Shown piece by piece: positions 2,996-39,747 of a stretch of 39,747 nt of DNA (position 1 is the stretch's first letter; every line of letters begins with the position of its first letter). This DNA is from Escherichia phage Vec13: sequence record NC_048023.1; one strand, given 5' to 3'. The translations under genes were made by a program, and so were the position numbers. Under the pieces are notes generated by a model that did not search any database, was not told the origin of the DNA, and was given only the letters and a program-made list of their open reading frames with translations.

Positions 2996-3018
2996 ACTTA
3001 ACTATCACTATAGGACTC
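2996..3018 (+). promoter_or_regulatory. Phage RNAP promoter immediately upstream of the RNAP gene
   Basis: cttaACTATCACTATAGGAct matches the 11-copy phage promoter consensus; +1 G at 3013. Confidence 0.7.
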
Positions 3019-3087: not shown

Positions 3088-5769
3088 ATGAGCGTCATCT
3101 CTATTGATAAACACGACTTCTCTGATGTGTCGAACGCCATTGAGCCGTTTAACCTGCTGGCCGACCACTACGGGCAAGACCTTGCAGTCAAACAGCTTCA
3201 GCTTGAGCATGAGGCATACACTGAAGGCGAGCGACGTTTCATCAAAAACCTTGAGCGACAGACTGAGCGCGGGGAACTGGCAGACAATCAGGTCGCCAAG
3301 CCTTTGATGCAGACTCTGGTTCCTAAGATTGCGCAAGCCGTCAAGGAGTGGCACGAAGGTCCAGACGGGAAGCTGTCAACCTCACGTCCGAGCGTAGCGT
3401 TCACCATGTTAAGCACTGAAGAGAAGGCCGTCAAGGACCGCTCTCTTCGCATCTCCTGCGAGTCTGCTGCGGTTATCATACTGAAGGTCATCCTCTCCAA
3501 GCTGGTCAAGCCTGAAGGTATACCGATTACACCGATGGCCTCCGCGATAGGTCGCACACTTGAGGATGAAATCCGATTCGGTCGCATTCGTGACAAGGAG
3601 AAGGAGCACTTCAAGAAGGCGATAGCTGATAACCTGAACAAGAGAGCCGGGGCATCATACAAGAAAGCCTACATGCAAGCGGTCGAGACATCCATGCTGG
3701 AGCAAGGCCAACTAGAAGATGCGTGGGGAACTTGGAGTCCGACCGAGGCTGTCCACGTTGGAATCAAGATGCTGGAGATTGTCATACAGTCAACACAACT
3801 GGTCGAGCTTAAGCGTTACGGTGCTGGCAATGCAGCGGCTGACGTTGAGATGGTCCACCTGTCAGACTTCTGGGTCAAGAAGATGGCACAACGCGGCTTC
3901 AGCCTTGCGGGTATCGCTCCAGTCTACCAACCTTGCGTAGTTCCACCTAAGCCGTGGACTGGTGTCGTAGGCGGTGGGTACTGGGCCAAAGGTCGCAGAC
4001 CATTACCACTGATTCGCTTAGGGTCTAAGTCTGCGGTGGCACGTTACGAAGACGTGTATATGCCTGAAGTATATGACGCTGTTAACATCATCCAGAATAC
4101 ACCTTGGAAAGTAAACAAGAAGGTTCTTGACGTGGTGAACATGGTCGAGAAGTTGAACAACACGCCTATTGATGACATCCCTCAGATGGAGCCACTGAAG
4201 CCTGAAGACTATGCGGGTGAGACTGAAGAGGAACTCAAGGCATGGAAGAAGGCTGCTGCTGGTATCTACCGCCGAGAGAAGGCCCGGCAGTCACGTAGAT
4301 TGTCACTGAGCTTTATCGTTAACCAAGCGAACAAGTTCTCTCAGTTCAAGGCCATCTGGTTCCCGTACAACATGGACTGGCGCGGTCGCGTCTACGCTGT
4401 GCCGATGTTCAACCCTCAGGGTAACGACATGCAAAAGGGTCTCCTGACTCTGGCAGTCGGTAAGCCTATTGGTGCTGATGGTTTCAAATGGCTGAAGGTC
4501 CACGGTGCAAACTGTGCGGGTATTGATAAAGTAACCTTCGAGGAGCGCATCAAGTGGGTGGAAGATAACCACGACAACATCATGGCTACCGCTAAGGCAC
4601 CGATGGACAGCATTGAGTGGTGGGGGAAGTTAGACTCTCCTTTCTGCTTCCTTGCGTTCTGCTTCGAGTATGCTGGCGTGATGCACCACGGATTGTCTTA
4701 CTCCTGCTCGCTGCCGATAGCTTTCGATGGGTCCTGCTCTGGGATTCAGCACTTCAGCGCTATGCTTCGTGACCACATCGGTGGACATGCAGTAAACCTG
4801 ACGCCTTCCGGTAAGGTCCAAGACATCTACCGCATCGTGTCTGACCGCATTGAGGAAGAGCTTAAAGTCCTGCTGGTTAACGGCACGGACAACGAGATGG
4901 TAACTCACGAGGACAAGAAAACTGGTGAGATTACCGAGCGTCTCAAGCTGGGGACACGAGAGCTGGCCCGTCAGTGGCTGACCTACGGTATGTCACGAAA
5001 GGTCACTAAGCGCTCAGTCATGACTCTGGCCTACGGGTCGAAAGAGTACGGATTCGCAGACCAAGTATACGAGGACATCGTGATGCCAGCGATTGACTCA
5101 GGGTCTGGCGCTATGTTCACTGAACCAAGCCAAGCATCTCGCTTCATGGCTAAGATGATTTGGGAAGCTGTGAGTGTGACCGTAGTTGCTGCGGTTGACG
5201 CGATGAAATGGCTTCAGGGTGCTGCCAAGCTGCTGGCGGCTGAAGTGAAGGACAAGAAGACGGGTGAAATCCTGAAGCCTTGCCTTCCGGTACACTGGGT
5301 CACACCTGATGGGTTCCCGGTCTGGCAGGAATACCGCAAGAAGGATACCACTCGTCTGAATCTGATGTTCTTAGGGTCATTCAACCTTCAGCCTACCGTC
5401 AACAAAGGCACGAAGAAAGAGCTGGATAAGCACAAGCAGGAGTCAGGCATTAGCCCGAACTTCGTCCACTCACAAGATGGTAGCCACCTCCGCAAGACTG
5501 TAGTCCATACTCACCGCAAGTATGGCGTGATGTCGTTCGCAGTGATTCACGATAGCTTCGGGACCATCCCGGCTGACGCTGAGTATCTGTTCCGTGGGGT
5601 CCGTGAGACTATGGTCGAGACCTACCGCGACAACGATGTGCTGCTTGACTTCTACGAGCAGTTTGAATACCAGCTTCACGAGAGCCAGCGCGATAAGTTG
5701 CCAGAGCTTCCGAAGAAAGGTAAACTGAATATCGAAGACATCTTGTCTTCAGACTTTGCATTCGCTTAA
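3088..5769 (+). CDS. Single-subunit DNA-directed RNA polymerase (T7 gp1 homolog)
   Basis: 893 aa; long colinear identity with T7 RNAP incl. FPYNMDWRGRVYAV, LPIAFDGSCSGIQHFSAMLRD, VHSQDGSHLRKTV, HDSFGT, C-terminal FAFA. Confidence 0.98.
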   Translation: MSVISIDKHDFSDVSNAIEPFNLLADHYGQDLAVKQLQLEHEAYTEGERRFIKNLERQTERGELADNQVAKPLMQTLVPKIAQAVKEWHEGPDGKLSTSRPSVAFTMLSTEEKAVKDRSLRISCESAAVIILKVILSKLVKPEGIPITPMASAIGRTLEDEIRFGRIRDKEKEHFKKAIADNLNKRAGASYKKAYMQAVETSMLEQGQLEDAWGTWSPTEAVHVGIKMLEIVIQSTQLVELKRYGAGNAAADVEMVHLSDFWVKKMAQRGFSLAGIAPVYQPCVVPPKPWTGVVGGGYWAKGRRPLPLIRLGSKSAVARYEDVYMPEVYDAVNIIQNTPWKVNKKVLDVVNMVEKLNNTPIDDIPQMEPLKPEDYAGETEEELKAWKKAAAGIYRREKARQSRRLSLSFIVNQANKFSQFKAIWFPYNMDWRGRVYAVPMFNPQGNDMQKGLLTLAVGKPIGADGFKWLKVHGANCAGIDKVTFEERIKWVEDNHDNIMATAKAPMDSIEWWGKLDSPFCFLAFCFEYAGVMHHGLSYSCSLPIAFDGSCSGIQHFSAMLRDHIGGHAVNLTPSGKVQDIYRIVSDRIEEELKVLLVNGTDNEMVTHEDKKTGEITERLKLGTRELARQWLTYGMSRKVTKRSVMTLAYGSKEYGFADQVYEDIVMPAIDSGSGAMFTEPSQASRFMAKMIWEAVSVTVVAAVDAMKWLQGAAKLLAAEVKDKKTGEILKPCLPVHWVTPDGFPVWQEYRKKDTTRLNLMFLGSFNLQPTVNKGTKKELDKHKQESGISPNFVHSQDGSHLRKTVVHTHRKYGVMSFAVIHDSFGTIPADAEYLFRGVRETMVETYRDNDVLLDFYEQFEYQLHESQRDKLPELPKKGKLNIEDILSSDFAFA

Positions 5770-6063: not shown

Positions 6064-6086
6064 AAGAGGTTAACCTAAACTATCAC
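6064..6086 (+). promoter_or_regulatory. Phage RNAP promoter (phi1.1-like; candidate primary replication origin region)
   Basis: cctaaACTATCACTATAGGatt; in T7 the phi1.1A/B promoters with adjacent AT-rich DNA form the primary origin. Confidence 0.8.
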
Positions 6087-6128
6087 TATAGGATTAGACT
6101 CAAGGTCATGACTCAAAGTCGTGGCCTT
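6084..6128 (+). promoter_or_regulatory. RNase III-like hairpin (conserved tagactcaaggtcat ... gtggccttcatgatta)
   Basis: One of three near-identical elements (also 13374..13418, 36491..36538); aaggtca pairs with tggcctt with a G-U. Confidence 0.55.
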
Positions 6129-7678: not shown

Positions 7679-7720
7679 CAACCCAGTGGTCTTAGGACTG
7701 CTGGGTTTCTTTGCTTTGTG
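7679..7720 (+). terminator. Putative early (host RNAP) terminator, TE-like
   Basis: Stem acccag/ctgggt followed by T-rich tttctttgctttgtg directly after ligase gene, where T7 TE lies. Confidence 0.45.
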
Positions 7721-7753: not shown

Positions 7754-7776
7754 CCTAAGCTATCACTATAGGACAA
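7754..7776 (+). promoter_or_regulatory. Phage RNAP promoter (variant, G at -13)
   Basis: ctaagCTATCACTATAGGaca; +1 G at 7771. Confidence 0.7.
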
Positions 7777-8696: not shown

Positions 8697-8855
8697 ATGA
8701 CTGACGTAGAAAAGAAATACATCGTGGAGCTTGAGGGTCGCGTTCAGTCATTCGAGGTTCCGGTGTACGCAAAGTCTCTTGAAGAGGCTACCCTGAAGTC
8801 CCAAGAGTATGAGGACGCTGGGTTTGTGGTCGGACGGATTCGTCCTGAGACCTAA
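8697..8855 (+). CDS. gp2-like inhibitor of host RNA polymerase
   Basis: [15 protein letters not shown]...[10 protein letters not shown] resembles T7 gp2 HSFEVPIYAETLDEA...AGFEVTRVRP; start at internal ATG 8697 with SD aaggag (track ORF 8619..8855). Confidence 0.7.
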
Positions 8856-8873
8856 ACTATCACTGTAGGACAG
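8851..8873 (+). promoter_or_regulatory. Phage RNAP promoter variant (phi2.5-like; A to G at -3)
   Basis: cctaaACTATCACTgTAGGaca immediately upstream of SSB gene. Confidence 0.55.
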
Positions 8874-10990: not shown

Positions 10991-11206
10991 ATGATTAAAC
11001 TTATCGAATTTCTAGGTCGTCTGGTGGTGCGTGGTTATCGTCGTGCTGCGGTACTGGAACGAAAGGTAGAAAAGAAGACTGCTGATGGCGCGGCTGATGC
11101 GGCTGCTCTGGCTGACAAGCTGACCATCGCGTCACTGGAAGCTGGCATGAAGGCTCGTCAGGCTGATACCAAAGCTGACCAGTTGGCTCAGTTCTTCAAA
11201 GACTAA
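10991..11206 (+). CDS. Hypothetical protein (71 aa, Ala-rich, predicted helical)
   Basis: Strong SD aaaggag; position of T7 gene 3.8 but no HNH motifs. Confidence 0.5.
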   Translation: MIKLIEFLGRLVVRGYRRAAVLERKVEKKTADGAADAAALADKLTIASLEAGMKARQADTKADQLAQFFKD

Positions 11207-11223
11207 ACTATCACCTTAGGGAT
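11201..11223 (+). promoter_or_regulatory. Possible weak phage promoter variant
   Basis: gactaaACTATCACctTAGGGa; two mismatches at -5/-4 relative to consensus; T7 has phi3.8 at this location. Confidence 0.3.
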
Positions 11224-11274
11224 GGGACCATGAGTCCTGTCCCTTTGTTCGCATTTGTGACTAAGGAGTGACCG

Positions 11275-11454
11275 ATGGTTACAGTTATTCTAGTTCTAAC
11301 GCTTATCAGTGGTAGTGGGCAAACTATCAGCCAAGTACCTATAACAGCACCAACATTACAGGACGCATTCACAATATGTGACCAGTCCGGCTCAAAGTGG
11401 GCCGACAAGTTTGGCGATGTCTCAAACGTTGCAGCAGGGTATGAGTGTATTTAA
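11275..11454 (+). CDS. Small protein (59 aa) with N-terminal signal-peptide-like hydrophobic segment
   Basis: RBS ctaaggagtgaccgATG is nearly identical to gene 4 RBS ttaaggagtgaccaATG; MVTVILVLTLISGSG hydrophobic N-terminus; below ORF-track cutoff. Confidence 0.45.
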   Translation: MVTVILVLTLISGSGQTISQVPITAPTLQDAFTICDQSGSKWADKFGDVSNVAAGYECI

Positions 11455-17525: not shown

Positions 17526-17548
17526 ACTAAACTATCACTATAGGGACT
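17526..17548 (+). promoter_or_regulatory. Phage RNAP promoter (phi6.5-like)
   Basis: ctaaACTATCACTATAGGGact; +1 G at 17543. Confidence 0.85.
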
Positions 17549-17609
17549 TTAGGACCTAAGATATGACTATAAGATAGACTTTAGTCTTAACTTAAAGAGG
17601 AGATTCAAG

Positions 17610-18530: not shown

Positions 18531-18771
18531 ATCAATCAGTAAGGCATTCAAGAAAGTGGTGAAAAGTACGCTAGGGACCGTTGGTCTTGGCTCTGATGAC
18601 GCACCTAAGGTTGTTGAGGCTCAGACCCCAGCAGCACCAGTGGAAGTACCGAACGACAAAGTGGAGGATGTGGATACTGAAACAACCGCATCTGACGAGA
18701 AGAAAGTGAAGCGTTCCGGTAAGCGTAACCTTCAGGTCTCTCGCACCTCTGGTGGCGGTATTTCTATATGA
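18523..18771 (+). CDS. gp7.3-like tail/host-range protein (GTG start)
   Basis: 82 aa; MGKSISKAFKKVVKS basic N-terminus and C-terminal SRTSGGGISI match T7 gp7.3 (MGKKVKKAVKK ... SSGGGINI); SD aaggag. Confidence 0.8.
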   Translation: MGKSISKAFKKVVKSTLGTVGLGSDDAPKVVEAQTPAAPVEVPNDKVEDVDTETTASDEKKVKRSGKRNLQVSRTSGGGISI

Positions 18772-19160
18772 CACCATGTCATGAATGGGGTGGATACTGC
18801 ACCAAGGATGGCTACGGTGAAACTAGGGTAGATGGGCGCAAGGTTCGCGTTCATCGCCTAGAGTGGACGAAACACTACGGACCCATTCCGCATGACAAAG
18901 TGGTTCGCCACAAGTGTGACAACCCTAAGTGTTTTAATATTGAACACCTAGAGTTAGGGACAACACAGGATAACACGGCTGACAGAGTGTCTCGTGGTCG
19001 AAGCGCCAAAGGAGAGGATAACGGTAACGCCGTCCTCACTATTGATATTGTTAATGAGATTCGCGAAAGTAGCATGTCTCAGCGCAAAATAGCGAAGACC
19101 TATGGAGTGTCACAGTCTACCGTATCTAAAATCAAACGCAATGTAACGTGGAGGTCATAA
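18768..19160 (+). CDS. HNH homing endonuclease with C-terminal helix-turn-helix
   Basis: 130 aa; VHRLEW...VRHKCDNPKCFNIEHLELGTTQDN is an HNH nuclease signature; C-terminal SQRKIAKTYGVSQSTVSKI is HTH-like. Confidence 0.85.
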   Translation: MTPCHEWGGYCTKDGYGETRVDGRKVRVHRLEWTKHYGPIPHDKVVRHKCDNPKCFNIEHLELGTTQDNTADRVSRGRSAKGEDNGNAVLTIDIVNEIRESSMSQRKIAKTYGVSQSTVSKIKRNVTWRS

Positions 19161-19161
19161 C

Positions 19162-20730
19162 ATGGCAGAACGTGAAGGATTTGCGGCTGAAGGCGCTAAG
19201 TCAGTTTATGATAGATTGAAGAACGGACGACAGCCTTACGAGACCCGCGCACAGAACTGCGCTGCCGTGACCATCCCCTCGCTATTTCCCAAGGAGTCCG
19301 ACAACTCGTCTACGGAATACGTGACGCCGTGGCAAGCTGTAGGTGCTCGCTGCTTGAACAACTTGGCTGCAAAGCTGATGTTGGCGTTATTCCCTCAGTC
19401 ACCGTGGATGCGACTGACAGTCTCCGAATATGAGGCAAAGACCTTGAGTCAGGACTCAGAGGCTGCTGCTCGTGTTGACGAGGGGCTTGCTATGGTCGAG
19501 CGTGTGTTGATGGCCTACATGGAGACCAACAGTTTCCGTGTGCCATTGTTCGAAGCTCTGAAGCAGCTTATAGTCTCCGGTAACTGTCTGCTATACATTC
19601 CAGAGCCTGAACAGGGAACCTACAGTCCTATGCGAATGTACCGCTTAGTGTCCTACGTTGTTCAACGTGATGCTTTCGGTAACATCTTACAGATTGTGAC
19701 TCTCGACAAGGTAGCGTTTAGTGCTCTACCGGAAGACGTGAAGTCTCAACTCAACGCAGACGACTATGAGCCTGACACCGAGCTTGAAGTGTATACGCAC
19801 ATCTACCGTCAGGACGACGAGTATCTGCGCTACGAGGAAGTGGAAGGCATTGAGGTGACAGGGACCGATGGTTCCTACCCGCTGACTGCATGTCCATACA
19901 TCCCGGTACGAATGGTTCGACTGGATGGTGAAGACTACGGTCGTTCTTACTGCGAGGAGTATCTGGGAGACCTGAACTCGCTGGAGACGATTACAGAAGC
20001 TATCACTAAAATGGCTAAGGTAGCCTCCAAGGTGATTGGCCTCGTTAACCCGAACGGTATCACGCAACCTCGACGTCTGAACAAGGCGGCTACAGGTGAG
20101 TTCGTGGCTGGTCGCGTTGAGGACATCAACTTCCTGCAACTGACGAAAGGTCAGGACTTTACGATTGCCAAGTCGGTGGCTGATGCTATCGAGCAACGTT
20201 TAGGCTGGGCCTTCCTTCTTAATAGTGCTGTTCAGCGTAATGCCGAGCGAGTCACTGCTGAAGAGATTCGTTATGTTGCTGGCGAACTGGAGGCGACCTT
20301 AGGTGGCGTGTACTCAGTGCAGTCACAAGAGCTTCAGTTACCTATCGTCCGTGTGCTGATGAACCAGCTTCAGTCTGCTGGAATGATTCCTGACCTTCCG
20401 AAAGAAGCGGTAGAGCCTACTGTCTCCACTGGTCTGGAAGCGTTAGGTCGTGGTCAGGACTTAGAGAAGCTAACTCAGGCAGTCAACATGATGACCGGGC
20501 TCCAGCCTCTGCAACAGGACCCAGACATTAACTTGCCGACCCTGAAGCTGCGACTGCTGAACGCTCTGGGTATAGACACCGCTGGTCTACTCCTCACGCA
20601 GGACGAGAAGATTCAGCGCATGGCTGAACAGTCGTCTCAACAGGCAGTAGTCCAAGGTGCTGGTGCTGCTGGTGCCAACATGGGCGCTGCTGTAGGTCAG
20701 GGAGCTGGTGAGGACATGGCTCAAGCCTAA
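19162..20730 (+). CDS. Portal (head-to-tail connector) protein (T7 gp8 homolog)
   Basis: 522 aa; AEGAKSVYDRLKNGRQPYETRAQNCA, TPWQAVGARCLNNLAAKLMLALFP, GLVNPNGITQPRRL, RVTAEEIRYVAGELE match T7 gp8. Confidence 0.98.
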   Translation: MAEREGFAAEGAKSVYDRLKNGRQPYETRAQNCAAVTIPSLFPKESDNSSTEYVTPWQAVGARCLNNLAAKLMLALFPQSPWMRLTVSEYEAKTLSQDSEAAARVDEGLAMVERVLMAYMETNSFRVPLFEALKQLIVSGNCLLYIPEPEQGTYSPMRMYRLVSYVVQRDAFGNILQIVTLDKVAFSALPEDVKSQLNADDYEPDTELEVYTHIYRQDDEYLRYEEVEGIEVTGTDGSYPLTACPYIPVRMVRLDGEDYGRSYCEEYLGDLNSLETITEAITKMAKVASKVIGLVNPNGITQPRRLNKAATGEFVAGRVEDINFLQLTKGQDFTIAKSVADAIEQRLGWAFLLNSAVQRNAERVTAEEIRYVAGELEATLGGVYSVQSQELQLPIVRVLMNQLQSAGMIPDLPKEAVEPTVSTGLEALGRGQDLEKLTQAVNMMTGLQPLQQDPDINLPTLKLRLLNALGIDTAGLLLTQDEKIQRMAEQSSQQAVVQGAGAAGANMGAAVGQGAGEDMAQA

Positions 20731-20748
20731 ACTATCACTATAGGAACA
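20726..20748 (+). promoter_or_regulatory. Phage RNAP promoter (phi9-like)
   Basis: cctaaACTATCACTATAGGaac; +1 G at 20743. Confidence 0.85.
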
Positions 20749-21713: not shown

Positions 21714-21736
21714 ACTAAACTATCACTATAGGGAGA
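21714..21736 (+). promoter_or_regulatory. Phage RNAP promoter (phi10-like, full consensus incl. GGGAGA)
   Basis: ctaaACTATCACTATAGGGAGAcc; best match to T7-family class III promoter downstream GGGAGA; directly upstream of major capsid gene. Confidence 0.9.
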
Positions 21737-21838
21737 CCAAGAGACAGACTCAAGGTTTCCCTATTACTTCAGTCCATACGGATTGGGCGTACAGTAAGTA
21801 ATATACTTTATCTTTCAATTGAATAGGAGAATTATCAT

Positions 21839-23151: not shown

Positions 23152-23154
23152 TTG

Positions 23155-23195
23155 AAACCCCTTGGGTGCCTTCGGGTGCTTGAGGGGTTTTTTGC
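23155..23195 (+). terminator. Tphi-like terminator for phage RNAP
   Basis: aaCCCCTTGGGTGCCttcgGGTGCTTGAGGGGtttttt: GC-rich hairpin with G-U pairs and ttcg loop followed by T6; same position and architecture as T7 Tphi. Confidence 0.8.
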
Positions 23196-23315
23196 TTAAT
23201 GATGAGGAGGGACTATGTTCCTTATTTACACATGGTTAGTACTATTCGTCTTATTCTGGTCGTACCTGCTGCCAAGCTCACCGTCCAGCCCATATGACCG
23301 TTAAGGAGTAAACCT

Positions 23316-26500: not shown

Positions 26501-26523
26501 CCTTAACTATCACTATAGGGACT
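26501..26523 (+). promoter_or_regulatory. Phage RNAP promoter (phi13-like), flanked by 12-bp inverted repeat
   Basis: ccttaACTATCACTATAGGGact; aagggcctatag (26484..26495) and ctataggccctt (26522..26533) are perfect reverse complements. Confidence 0.85.
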
Positions 26524-32800: not shown

Positions 32801-33781
32801 GGTACGACCAACTACCTGTTAGATGCTGGACGTCAAGGCTTCCTGTCTGACATCGTGGAGCATAGCCTGACTGGTAGTAAGCGTAAGTTCGATGACCGCT
32901 GGCTTAAGACCGCTGGTATCTCTGACGAGCAGTGGAAGGGAATTAAGTCCCTCATCCGTGAGTCAGTGACGCGTGGTCCAGACGGGACGTACACCATCAA
33001 GGATAAGAAGGCGTTCAGTCAGGACCCAAGGGCTATGGACCTCTGGCGTATGGGTGACACCATCGCTGATGAGACCCTGCTCCGTCCCCACAAGCTGAGC
33101 AACATGGACGCCAAGGCTTATGGTCCGATAGCGAAGACTGTCTTGCAGTTTAAGAACTTCGTTATCAAGTCTATCAACGGTCGAACCATGCGTACCTTCT
33201 ACAACGCCACCAAGAACAACCGAGCTATGGATGCTGCACTGTCCACGGTTATGTCTATGGGTCTGGCTGGGATGTACTACATGGCTCAGGCGCACATCAA
33301 GGCTTACGCTATGCAGGACGGTCGTGACCGTGAGTACCTGAAGCAAGCCCTGAACCCGACGATGATTGGCTATGCGGCTCTATCCCGTAGCTCCCACTTG
33401 GGTGGACCTCTTGGGGTCGCCAACATTCTGGGTGGCATCGCTGGGTATGAGGACACTAAGTTACTCCGCTCGTCTATCCTTCCTCGCTCACCTACCGAGA
33501 AGACGGAGAAGCCAATCGCCTTTGGTGCTGCTTCCAGTGGTCCGGTAATGAATGTGGTCGGCAACTTCCTTGAGCAGGTCCCGGCTTTCGGCTATGCTGC
33601 TAACGTTGGTGCTACGGCTTACAACTTGGCGGGATACCTCAAGGCTGATACCCGTGTCAACGAGCGAGACTACATGACCGGGATGTATAACACGTTCCGT
33701 GAACTTGTACCGAATGACCCGATTACCCAGAAGTTGCTGCTTGGAACGTTTGAGGAGCAAGGCATCCACATCAAGGACTAA
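29894..33781 (+). CDS. Internal virion (core/ejectosome) protein gp16 homolog with divergent N-terminal domain
   Basis: 1295 aa; from about residue 200 colinear with T7 gp16 (STWFGF, VITGGSPQNL, LRSPTGMQSGASGK, NPAMFG, TYVPHVY, NSFLEARNLFDSD, PHKLS, ALSRSS); N-terminal about 200 aa lack the T7 lytic transglycosylase motifs. Confidence 0.95.
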   Translation: MATRGIRNNNPGNIRVSKDQWEGMTGDDGAFVTFDSPESGVRALGKNLLSYGRRGYDSIEKIINRWAPPNENDTKAYIDSVVAATGIPATQSLDLSDPDTLSSLAQAISFHETGSRYDPEVYQKGVARALNGITPKTPPVSANVFDALTEGLKAKPKVALGENLPTAAGLNIEGQAPEAPNESFGEMFYKATGETVQEREDRSTWFGFGAATEAEVKNSMVGVAIRAGQTEDSLDVIGDVFNPTRWNNHKWTREELDQIRNAGVMPQYYGVITGGSPQNLTELINLALENQKLDQEKAKAGTGAQLAAGVIGAGVDPLTYVPIAGQVGKGGKLVNKMFTVAAQSGALAGVSEMARTSVAGGDAHVAEAILGGALFGGGMTAIADGLGRALGRNTNEFAGPATRLEARETARNVDGQDLSRLPIQEGEQTFSHQGVKFADVPNEPGSVRLEDGSILIGENPLNPKTRQVFDEVIEPERAAAGVNLGGLTEIGLKLLRSENPEIRGVAADLVRSPTGMQSGASGKIGTTASDVFERLRAVDHRFYNDIDDAVTEALKDPYFQTAFWRDSGAFRQDIYQRVSMAIEDGSGNLKAELTPGELKVYDLLKNQFDAKREMMENPAMFGRPDAQSIFPGSRFKGTYVPHVYSNQMKELYIKELGSPEALQEAIKKSWLTSYASRPEVKKRVDEALLEADPTLTPEGLAAAVDKYANDKAYGISHTEQFERSSVMEENINGLVGLENNSFLEARNLFDSDMSIVLPNGQTFSVNNLREWDMDKIVPAYNRRVNGDIAIMAGTGKTTKDMKDLVETMMNKAGDDGKLKGEVSTLRDTLKILTGRARRDGADDAAFATVMRTMTDLSFFAKNAYMGVQNLTEIGGMLARGNVRALLHGVPIFRDLAFRNKKVGASEIKDLHNVIFGKELDDSIRPSKQDVIDRLRSYSDLGRGTATALGTAKYYTGELAVRSPFTKVLNGTTNYLLDAGRQGFLSDIVEHSLTGSKRKFDDRWLKTAGISDEQWKGIKSLIRESVTRGPDGTYTIKDKKAFSQDPRAMDLWRMGDTIADETLLRPHKLSNMDAKAYGPIAKTVLQFKNFVIKSINGRTMRTFYNATKNNRAMDAALSTVMSMGLAGMYYMAQAHIKAYAMQDGRDREYLKQALNPTMIGYAALSRSSHLGGPLGVANILGGIAGYEDTKLLRSSILPRSPTEKTEKPIAFGAASSGPVMNVVGNFLEQVPAFGYAANVGATAYNLAGYLKADTRVNERDYMTGMYNTFRELVPNDPITQKLLLGTFEEQGIHIKD

Positions 33782-33799
33782 ACTATCACTATAGGAAAC
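33777..33799 (+). promoter_or_regulatory. Phage RNAP promoter (phi17-like)
   Basis: ctaaACTATCACTATAGGaaacg; +1 G at 33794. Confidence 0.85.
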
Positions 33800-33846: not shown

Positions 33847-35877
33847 ATGTCCACGATTACACAATTCCCTTCAGGAAGCACTCAGTACAGGATTGAGTTC
33901 GACTACCTAGCCAGAACGTTTGTTGTTGTTACGCTGGTGAATAGCTCTAACCCTACCCTGAACCGTGTACTGGAAGTTGGTCGAGATTACCGATTCCTTA
34001 ATCCAACGATGATTGAGATGTTGGTTGACCAATCAGGTTTCGACATCGTTCGCATTCACCGTCAGACTGGAACTGACTTAGTGGTAGACTTCAGGAATGG
34101 CTCAGTGTTGACAGCTAGTGACCTGACAAATTCAGAGCTTCAGGCTATCCATATTGCAGAAGAAGGTCGAGACCAAACGGTTGACTTAGCGAAGGAATAT
34201 GCCGATGCTGCTGGTAGCTCTGCTGGCAACGCTAAGGATAGCGAGGACGAAGCACGCCGAATCGCTGAGAGTATCAGGGCGGCTGGTCTAATTGGTTATA
34301 TTACCCGTCGCTCCTTCGAGAAAGGCTACAACGTTACAACATGGAGCGAGGTCCTGCTATGGGAAGAGGATGGTGATTATTACCGCTGGGATGGTACGCT
34401 TCCAAAGAACGTTCCTGCTGGTTCAACTCCTGAAACTTCCGGTGGGATTGGATTAGGTGCGTGGGTTAGTGTTGGTGATGCTGCTTTAAGAAGTCAGATT
34501 TCAAACCCGGAAGGGGCAATACTCTACCCAGAATTACAGATGGCGCGCTGGCGAGATGAGGGTGATGTTCGCGGATGGGGTGCTAAAGGTGATGGTTCTG
34601 CGGATGATACAGAGGCTTTCAAGGCAGCACTGGCAACAGGAAAGAATCTATATATCCCCGTTGGTATATACATCATTAAAGAGACTTTGTACTTTAAGAA
34701 CCAAGTTATTAAAGGTGGGGGAATATCTCCATCACCAAGTCTTGGTACAATCCTAGCAATCTCTCACAATGAAGCAGCTTTTAAGTATGACGTTAACTCT
34801 GGATACTCCATGGGTGGCTACTTAGGCGGTTTCTTCATTGATTATGGTGAGAACAAGCCAGACAACTATGGTGGTCGCAAAGGTATTGATATTGGTGATG
34901 CATCGCAGACAGCATGGCCTTCACAATTTATCATTGAGAACATCATAGTACGTGGTGCGTACTTTGGTATTCATGACGTGACAGGGGCTTTTCAGTATAC
35001 CATGCGTAACGTATTGGCGATTAATTGCTGGGAAGGTTTCCGTAAGCATATTGGTACTACAGTCCTAATGGATACATGCTACGCACTTAATTGTTATCAG
35101 GCGTTCAATTTTGCAAACGTGTACAACATGACTATGAACAATTGTGCAATGGACGGCTGTAATGATATACAAGGTCTACAGGCTTTTGATATTAACAACT
35201 GTAAAGGTATGGTAATAAATGGCATGTACAGCGAGAACTGTGAGATTCATCATAATGGACATGCCTCTATATATATTCATGGGGACTCAACAGTAACACT
35301 TAACGGATATGCACTACATTCCCACAAAGTTCTGGCTAGTTCTGGGGAGGCTTACTTCTTACGAGCACATGAAAGTTCTCGCGTTACTGTTGATGGTATC
35401 TTCTTCGGGGAAGACCTGACGTCTACTGCTGTATTCATGTACCCAGTCCTGTCTTCTGGGGATGCTAGAGTTAAGCTTGGAACTACTAGATTGAAGTTGT
35501 GGACTGGTGCTACGGGTGGGGCGTCACTGGCTGCACTAGGTAACAGTTTGATTGAGTATGACAACACAGTCTTTGTTCCAACAGTCACGGTCGGATGGTG
35601 TAGCAACAACGGAGTTGTAGCCAAAGGTACTCTTGCAGTTAACACTACGCTTGAACCAGGTGCTGACCTGAATGCCGGTAATATTACCCTCACTGGTGAC
35701 TACAAGCCAACTAAGGGGGATGTGCTTGTGTATGGTGCTACCTTTGATGTTAAGTCATGTTCAATTATTCTCAAGCCAATAGGGGAGAATTTATGTAATG
35801 TGTACATTAAGAACTTAAGTGCAGGTGGTAGTGCTACTCTTCTTGGTGACTTGATGGTACAGGCCATCCGACGCTAG
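33847..35877 (+). CDS. Tailspike/tail fiber: T7 gp17-like N-terminal adaptor plus pectate-lyase-like beta-helix (putative polysaccharide depolymerase)
   Basis: 676 aa; N-terminus FDYLARTFVVVTLV, DYRF, IHIAEE match T7 gp17; from about residue 240 WGAKGDGSADDTEAFKAAL and repetitive G/N/C-rich stretches typical of pectate lyase superfamily tailspikes. Confidence 0.9.
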   Translation: MSTITQFPSGSTQYRIEFDYLARTFVVVTLVNSSNPTLNRVLEVGRDYRFLNPTMIEMLVDQSGFDIVRIHRQTGTDLVVDFRNGSVLTASDLTNSELQAIHIAEEGRDQTVDLAKEYADAAGSSAGNAKDSEDEARRIAESIRAAGLIGYITRRSFEKGYNVTTWSEVLLWEEDGDYYRWDGTLPKNVPAGSTPETSGGIGLGAWVSVGDAALRSQISNPEGAILYPELQMARWRDEGDVRGWGAKGDGSADDTEAFKAALATGKNLYIPVGIYIIKETLYFKNQVIKGGGISPSPSLGTILAISHNEAAFKYDVNSGYSMGGYLGGFFIDYGENKPDNYGGRKGIDIGDASQTAWPSQFIIENIIVRGAYFGIHDVTGAFQYTMRNVLAINCWEGFRKHIGTTVLMDTCYALNCYQAFNFANVYNMTMNNCAMDGCNDIQGLQAFDINNCKGMVINGMYSENCEIHHNGHASIYIHGDSTVTLNGYALHSHKVLASSGEAYFLRAHESSRVTVDGIFFGEDLTSTAVFMYPVLSSGDARVKLGTTRLKLWTGATGGASLAALGNSLIEYDNTVFVPTVTVGWCSNNGVVAKGTLAVNTTLEPGADLNAGNITLTGDYKPTKGDVLVYGATFDVKSCSIILKPIGENLCNVYIKNLSAGGSATLLGDLMVQAIRR

Positions 35878-38895: not shown

Positions 38896-38918
38896 ACTTA
38901 ACTATCACTATAGGGAAG
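38896..38918 (+). promoter_or_regulatory. Phage RNAP promoter (phiOR-like, near right end)
   Basis: cttaACTATCACTATAGGGAagac; +1 G at 38913. Confidence 0.85.
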
Positions 38919-39568: not shown

Positions 39569-39747
39569 TCTCACAGTTCAAGAACCTCAAGTCTCCCCAT
39601 AGGCCCTCTTTAAGTCCAGACCAAAGGCCCTACCCCAGTCTATCATAAGGTTAGACCGATGGTCAAGACTTCAGGTCAACGATAGGTGGTGACTATGGCT
39701 TAGGGAAGGACGATAGGTGGTGACTATAGGTCTGTCTTTGAGTCTCT
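39569..39747. repeat. Right direct terminal repeat (DTR), identical to 1..179
   Basis: Exact 179-nt repeat of the window start. Confidence 0.9.

Follow-up and report, generated by a model that had tools for sequence, protein, structure and literature searches.

A 23-bp element located upstream of the major capsid gene in the genome of Escherichia phage Vec13 (NC_048023.1) raises the question of whether this element and its further copies constitute the promoter set of the phage's own RNA polymerase (RNAP) and, if so, whether the pair that they form with that enzyme represents a new specificity. Both had been proposed in an initial annotation of the stretch analyzed here, which covers 39,747 nucleotides and is referred to below as the window. 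We find that, with a probability of about 0.96, 11 such elements serve a Kayfunavirus coliphage as middle and late (class II/III-type) promoters for its gene 1 RNAP, and that the promoter–RNAP pair is already known, having been annotated, tested, and put to use as an orthogonal system.

The promoter set and its place in the genome

A search of the window with ACTATCACTATAGG, allowing up to two mismatches, yields 11 matches, all of them on the + strand and eight of them exact, against a chance expectation of 0.19; none of 100 dinucleotide-preserving shuffles reached 11. The three non-exact copies deviate as follows: 7754-7776 has G at -12, 8851-8873 has G at -3, and 11202-11224 has both C at -4 and T at -3. 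The region from -12 to -8 reads ACTAT in 10 of the sites and GCTAT in the remaining one, the consensus over -17 to +3 is (A/C)CT(A/T)AACTATCACTATAGG(G/A), and the letters at 21714-21736 are ACTAAACTATCACTATAGGGAGA. The number of copies, the consensus, and the site at 21714-21736, as originally put forward, are all confirmed by this motif search. With a weight matrix derived from the 11 sites, these score between 30.8 and 37.2 bits, while the next best position on either strand reaches only 14.8 bits, which marks the set as complete and clearly delimited. The promoters, together with the polymerase gene, the parts of it that encode the recognition loops, and two terminators, are arranged in the window as follows.

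2996-3018, + strand: promoter immediately before the RNAP gene, ACTTAACTATCACTATAGGACTC, with +1 at 3013; identical in K1F and named 'phi' in EcoDS1
3088-5769, + strand: gene 1, T7-like single-subunit RNA polymerase of 893 aa (Pfam RNA_pol, RPOL_N)
3364-3396, + strand: codes for the N-terminal loop that aligns with the AT-rich recognition loop of T7; putative role, by analogy with T7
5332-5427, + strand: codes for the specificity loop, which corresponds to T7 residues 739-770 and is identical to that of K1F
6074-6096, + strand: promoter after gene 1/1.1 and before the 1.15/1.2/ligase cluster; in the place that phi1.1 has in T7
7680-7717, + strand: TE-like intrinsic terminator that follows the ligase gene, with a 12-bp stem and a T-rich tail; collinear with TE of EcoDS1
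7754-7776, + strand: promoter phi1.6, G at -12; same variant in K1F and EcoDS1
8851-8873, + strand: promoter phi2.5, G at -3, ahead of the gene for the ssDNA-binding protein
11202-11224, + strand: promoter ahead of the gene 4 region, in which -4 is C and -3 is T; it scores lowest of the 11 (30.8 bits)
17526-17548, + strand: promoter phi6.5
20726-20748, + strand: promoter phi9, overlapping the gene 8 stop codon
21714-21736, + strand: promoter phi10, upstream of the major capsid gene, with the full GGGAGA initiation sequence
23154-23200, + strand: Tphi-like terminator after gene 10, a 17-bp hairpin followed by a U run; collinear with the EcoDS1 terminator
26501-26523, + strand: promoter phi13
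33777-33799, + strand: promoter phi17, overlapping the gene 16 stop codon, upstream of the tailspike gene
38896-38918, + strand: promoter phiOR, following the gene for the large subunit of the terminase; identical to EcoDS1 phiOR, with K1F differing only in +3 to +6

All 11 sites lie in gaps or overlap the last codons of the upstream open reading frame (ORF), and the distance from +1 to the next ORF varies from 32 to 108 nt. The genes that follow the sites are, in order, those of the RNAP, the 1.15/1.2/ligase cluster, 1.6, 2.5, the gene 4 region, 6.5, 9, 10, 13, and 17, after which comes the right end. This order is collinear with T7 phi1.1, 1.6, 2.5, 3.8/4, 6.5, 9, 10, 13, 17, and OR. The window thus contains what characterizes the promoters of T7-like phages (Studiervirinae), namely elements of ~23 bp (-17 to +6) with the core TCACTATAGG and G at +1, multiple coding-strand copies placed before the middle and late clusters collinearly with T7, and a cognate single-subunit RNAP in the same genome.

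The predicted transcript from phi10 carries a 5' stem-loop, GGGAGACC...GGUUUCCC, at 21731-21761, which begins exactly at +1 and which we take to resemble the leader of T7 gene 10. The hairpin after gene 10 (23154-23191) is strong, with a folding energy of -26.1 kcal/mol (z = -3.6). A weak promoter-like sequence, CCTAAGATATGACTATAAGATAG, scoring 14.8 bits, is found at 17555-17577, 29 bp downstream of phi6.5; it has mismatches at -12, -11, -7, and +1, and is therefore probably a decayed duplicate that is not functional.

Comparison with the promoters of T7 and T3

The 11 sites were aligned with the 17 annotated promoters of T7, and the loci of T7, T3, EcoDS1, and Dev2 were compared by DNA alignment, DNA search, translation, and protein comparison. 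The 23-bp architecture, the TCAC-TA-A core, the GG start, and the genome-wide distribution on the + strand are common to the window, T7, and T3, although the number of promoters is lower in the window (11) than in T7 (17). The segment from -8 to +2 is shared by the promoters of the window and of T7; across both sets, no change occurs at -8 to -6, and conservation is 90% or more at -5, -4, -3, -1, +1, and +2. This common core and the collinearity of the sites support the original assignment of the repeats as promoters of the phage's own single-subunit RNAP.

The part of the promoter that precedes the core is different. At -12 to -9 the window has ACTA where T7 has CGAC, and at -17 to -13 it has (A/C)CT(A/T)A where T7 has TAATA. 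When the specificity region is taken as -12 to -8, it reads ACTAT in the window, CGACT in T7 (a difference in four of the five bases), and ACCCT in T3, the promoters of which (ACCCTCACTAAAGG) are unlike those of the window at -10, -9, and -2. The distinctness from T7 and T3 that was noted at the outset is therefore real. No T7 promoter was matched when the window core was sought in the T7 genome with up to three mismatches. Promoters of the K11 type are represented in the literature by the KpnP promoter, AATTAGGGCACACTATAGGGA.

The RNA polymerase and its recognition loops

The gene 1 product is 63.9% identical to T7 RNAP overall and retains the catalytic residues D537, K631, and D812, in agreement with its initial description as T7-like throughout. 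In the specificity loop (T7 numbering), R746, N748, and Q758 are kept, the first and the last of them as in the T7 and T3 pairs, whereas Q754S, R756N, and I761V are changed, the first two of these substitutions also setting the enzyme apart from the T7/T3 pairs. The N-terminal loop, which aligns with the AT-rich recognition loop of T7, reads DGKLSTSRPSV in the window and KAK-RGKRPT in T7. Its divergence fits the differing bases at -17 to -13, loop and bases diverging together, and its part in reading the AT-rich region may be presumed from what is known of T7.

The divergence of the specificity loop had been illustrated in the initial annotation by the stretch QPTVNKGTKKELDKHKQ, which occupies residues 768-784 of the window RNAP and aligns with residues 758-774 of T7 (QPTINTNKDSEIDAHKQ). 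This stretch is indeed present and differs from T7, but Q754S and R756N precede it, and only I761V falls inside. Since these three substitutions are sufficient to retarget T7 RNAP to ACTAT, the stretch lies mostly outside the specificity substitutions, and the part of it that aligns with T7 residues 762-774 is also outside the segment that was swapped in the K1F graft experiment described below.

The enzyme is 99.3% identical to gp1 of phage K1F, with an identical specificity loop. The six substitutions that separate the two proteins are found at window residues 113, 201, 330, 374, 479, and 501, all of them outside the specificity and AT-rich loops and the intercalating hairpin. The identity is 99.8% to the RNAP of phage Bas105 and 99.7% to that of EcoDS1; altogether 47 phage records, including those of K1F, EcoDS1, and SH3, have an RNAP at least 99% identical to that of the window, and 125 more are in the range of 95-99%. 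The RNAP of Dev2 has the same key residues in the specificity loop as the K1F class. The window phage itself combines what defines that class, with S754, N756, and V761 accompanied by R746, N748, and Q758 in the loop, ACTAT at -12 to -8 of the promoters, and both the genome and the RNAP falling within the genus Kayfunavirus. The RefSeq label for K1F-type gp1, 'N4-like RNA polymerase', looks wrong.

By analogy with the complex of T7 RNAP with its promoter, the N-terminal loop would read positions -17 to -13, the C-terminal specificity loop would read -12 to -7 in the major groove, and the shared TATA at -4 to -1 would be melted, with transcription starting at the G at +1. Four residues of T7 RNAP, R746, N748, R756, and Q758, contact bases in the major groove. 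The switch from CGACT in T7 to ACTAT at -12 to -8 would be carried mainly by S754, N756, and V761, with R746, N748, and Q758 kept. Both C:G at -7 and T:A at -8 are retained, presumably in keeping with the retention of R746 and Q758, respectively, whereas we take the loss of G:C at -9 to accompany R756N. However, N748 is kept in the window RNAP although -11 and -10 change from GA in T7 to CT, and a code of three residues therefore does not fully explain recognition. How C at -11 and T at -10 are recognized by an enzyme that keeps N748 is explained neither by such a simple code nor by any solved structure, since the PDB contains only T7 RNAP and no structure of a K1F-type RNAP.

Relatives carrying the same promoters

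Exact direct terminal repeats of 179 bp, at 1-179 and 39569-39747, are present at both ends of the window, which is therefore a complete linear phage genome, that of a Kayfunavirus (K1F-like) coliphage; the reported length of the terminal repeat of K1F is also 179 bp. In DNA searches the window matches K1F and further records of Kayfunavirus best, with 92-96% identity. Phages 216Ecol046PP, T147P5, and Peacock are ~95% identical over ~90% of the window, and the same values apply to K1F. The stretch from the RNAP gene to the ligase gene is 95.4% identical to K1F DNA, while the right third of the genome is closest to phage UFJF_EcSW4 (96.7% identity). Two records, 'Enterococcus phage EFA-1' (MT350292) and 'Dickeya phage Monomax' (MN812686), are ~91% identical to the window in DNA, and their names are probably host or label errors.

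The promoter set of K1F (AM084414 / DQ111067), read directly from its genome sequence, consists of the same 11 sites, collinear and with the same variant bases; 10 of the 11 are identical over 23 bp, and phiOR is unlike its counterpart in the window only in +3 to +6. The record of EcoDS1 (NC_011042 / EU734172) contains 11 annotated 23-bp phage promoters that are collinear with those of the window, nine of them identical and two differing only at -17, and it also annotates TE, the late terminator, and the terminal repeats. In gene content EcoDS1 is unlike the window in places, with gene 1.05, gene 13.5, and a different gp17. For Sparklingdew, another Kayfunavirus, a genome paper of 2026 gives the consensus CTWAACTATCACTATAGG and names the repeats promoters. 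The exact 15-mer AACTATCACTATAGG is found in more than 118 contig stretches in IMG/VR, many of the contigs being ~40 kb long.

The window differs from K1F in several regions. An ORF of 59 aa (11275-11454) is located between the promoter at 11202-11224 and gene 4, where K1F has only 56 bp. Another ORF, at 18768-19160 between genes 7.3 and 8, encodes a 130-aa HNH endonuclease (HNH_3 with a weak HTH match); K1F has no gene at this position and T7 has the HNH gene 7.7, and the ORF is probably a mobile homing-endonuclease insertion. The gp17 of the window (33847-35877, 676 aa) comprises a T7 tail-fibre N-terminal domain, Tail_spike_N, and a pectate-lyase-like right-handed β-helix, whereas the tailspike of K1F is an endosialidase of 1064 aa. 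Since gp17 is not the endosialidase of K1F, the window phage probably targets a capsule or O-antigen other than K1.

Published characterization of the K1F-type specificity

The specificity encoded in the window has been characterized both in engineered and in native enzymes. In the K1F graft, residues Q744-I761 of T7 RNAP were replaced by the K1F loop and the promoter region -12 to -7 by the K1F consensus, which resulted in 17-fold induction and in orthogonality to the T7, T3, and N4-type pairs (Temme 2012). The same variant is listed as 754S/756N/761V with the cognate element ACTAT in Table 2 of a later study, in which 'K1F' is one of nine natural specificity clusters and the orthogonality of the grafted K1F set is rated modest or limited (Table 2 value 8; NAR 2025). 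A K1F-derived fragment was used with PK1F in a split polymerase (Segall-Shapiro 2014). The native K1F RNAP and PK1F are in use, as a pair orthogonal to MmP1 and VP4, in Halomonas, Pseudomonas, and E. coli, with values of ~46,000-fold for the cognate combination and 6-27-fold for the non-cognate ones, against MmP1 and VP4. The native RNAP of another Kayfunavirus, Ro45lw, was purified, its minimal promoter was mapped in vitro as ACTTAACTATCACTATAGGGA, and +1 was identified by sequencing as the first G (J Biol Chem 2025, PMC12272871).

The engineered T7(K1F) RNAP and its PK1F have the same ACTATC at -12 to -7 and the same loop residues S754, N756, and V761 as the pair in the window. They are, however, built on the T7 scaffold, with the T7 bases at -17 to -13 (TAATA) and the T7 AT-rich loop, in contrast to the native sites of the window, which have (A/C)CT(A/T)A at these positions and are accompanied by a divergent N-terminal loop. 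The Ro45lw promoter, ACTTAACTATCACTATAGGGACT, with which the window was compared by genus and promoter sequence, has the same core as all 11 sites and is one base away from both 26501-26523 and 17526-17548. We infer that the enzyme of the window phage behaves like the K1F graft and the RNAP of Ro45lw, and its use of T7, T3, and SP6 promoters would be absent or poor by analogy with T7(K1F), native K1F, and Ro45lw, the relatives for which the literature provides a basis.

The prediction of an orthogonal pair thus stands in part. According to the published work, pairs of this type are largely orthogonal to T7 and T3, but the pair is not new, being that of K1F and of Kayfunavirus generally. The proposed novelty is contradicted by the EcoDS1 annotation, the K1F sites, the graft, the use of the native enzyme, and Ro45lw, all of which identify an already characterized promoter set. 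Such promoters have been annotated in public records from 2008-era submissions, and synthetic biology has used the K1F-type polymerase–promoter pair as a standard orthogonal component since 2012. For calibration, the reading of the letters alone recovered the complete promoter regulon and its distinct specificity, but not the prior cataloguing of either.

Alternative readings

A specificity functionally distinct from that of K1F might be sought in the six substitutions that do exist relative to K1F gp1, or in the promoters, where phiOR differs in +3 to +6. Such a departure is extremely improbable, with all six substitutions located away from the loops and the hairpin listed above, 10 of the 11 promoters equal to those of K1F over 23 bp, and all 11 matching those of EcoDS1, the RNAP of which is 99.7% identical. 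Nor is there much to commend the view that the repeats are dispersed elements of another kind, such as signals for RNA processing, replication, or packaging. Some T3 promoters overlap RNase III sites, and promoters of the phiOR and phiOL type in T7 also serve replication and packaging, which would speak for it. This view is nevertheless hardly credible when the core from -8 to +2 is that of T7 promoters, the positions are collinear with T7 promoters, and the same sequence of 21-23 bp is transcribed in vitro by a congeneric RNAP, with +1 mapped by sequencing.

Considerably more weight, although still on the side of the unlikely, is due to the suggestion that only some of the 11 promoters are functional and that 11202-11224, and possibly 8851-8873 and 7754-7776, are weak or decayed copies kept by descent. 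These three variants have the lowest scores (30.8-33.4 bits), and the changes in 11202-11224 affect the TATA melting region, where conservation among the other promoters of the window and those of T7 amounts to 90-100%. On the other hand, the variant bases are retained in K1F and EcoDS1 despite an overall nucleotide identity to the window of only ~92-95%, which argues for selection, and T7 itself has A at -2 in phi1.5, 1.6, 3.8, 4c, and 4.3, its class II promoters remaining functional although they deviate at -2 and positions close by. Because the melting region is altered at -4 and -3, the strength or function of 11202-11224 is uncertain; possibly, the gene 4 region is served here by a promoter that is weak by design. 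The reading of the elements as middle and late promoters of the gene 1 RNAP is the one that we retain for the set.

The promoter upstream of gene 1

The full-consensus promoter at 2996-3018 has no annotated counterpart in T7 and T3, whose annotation at this location is limited to an RNase III site and a promoter of the E. coli type. Its +1 (3013) is 75 nt before the ATG of gene 1 (3088), and the promoter is also found in K1F, in EcoDS1, where it is annotated, and, with one mismatch, in Dev2. An RNase III-like structure between this promoter and the ATG of gene 1 was considered and rejected, the region folding no better than shuffled sequence (z = -0.34), and in the early region the hits from a simple sigma-70 scan did not exceed chance expectation. 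No functional study of the promoter upstream of gene 1 was found in the literature. The location of a promoter 75 nt upstream of the RNAP gene and its conservation in relatives suggest positive autoregulation, and we can speculate, quite tentatively, that the RNAP gene is placed under its own control. If the promoter at 2996-3018 is functional, it would provide positive feedback on the polymerase gene, which T7 and T3 lack.
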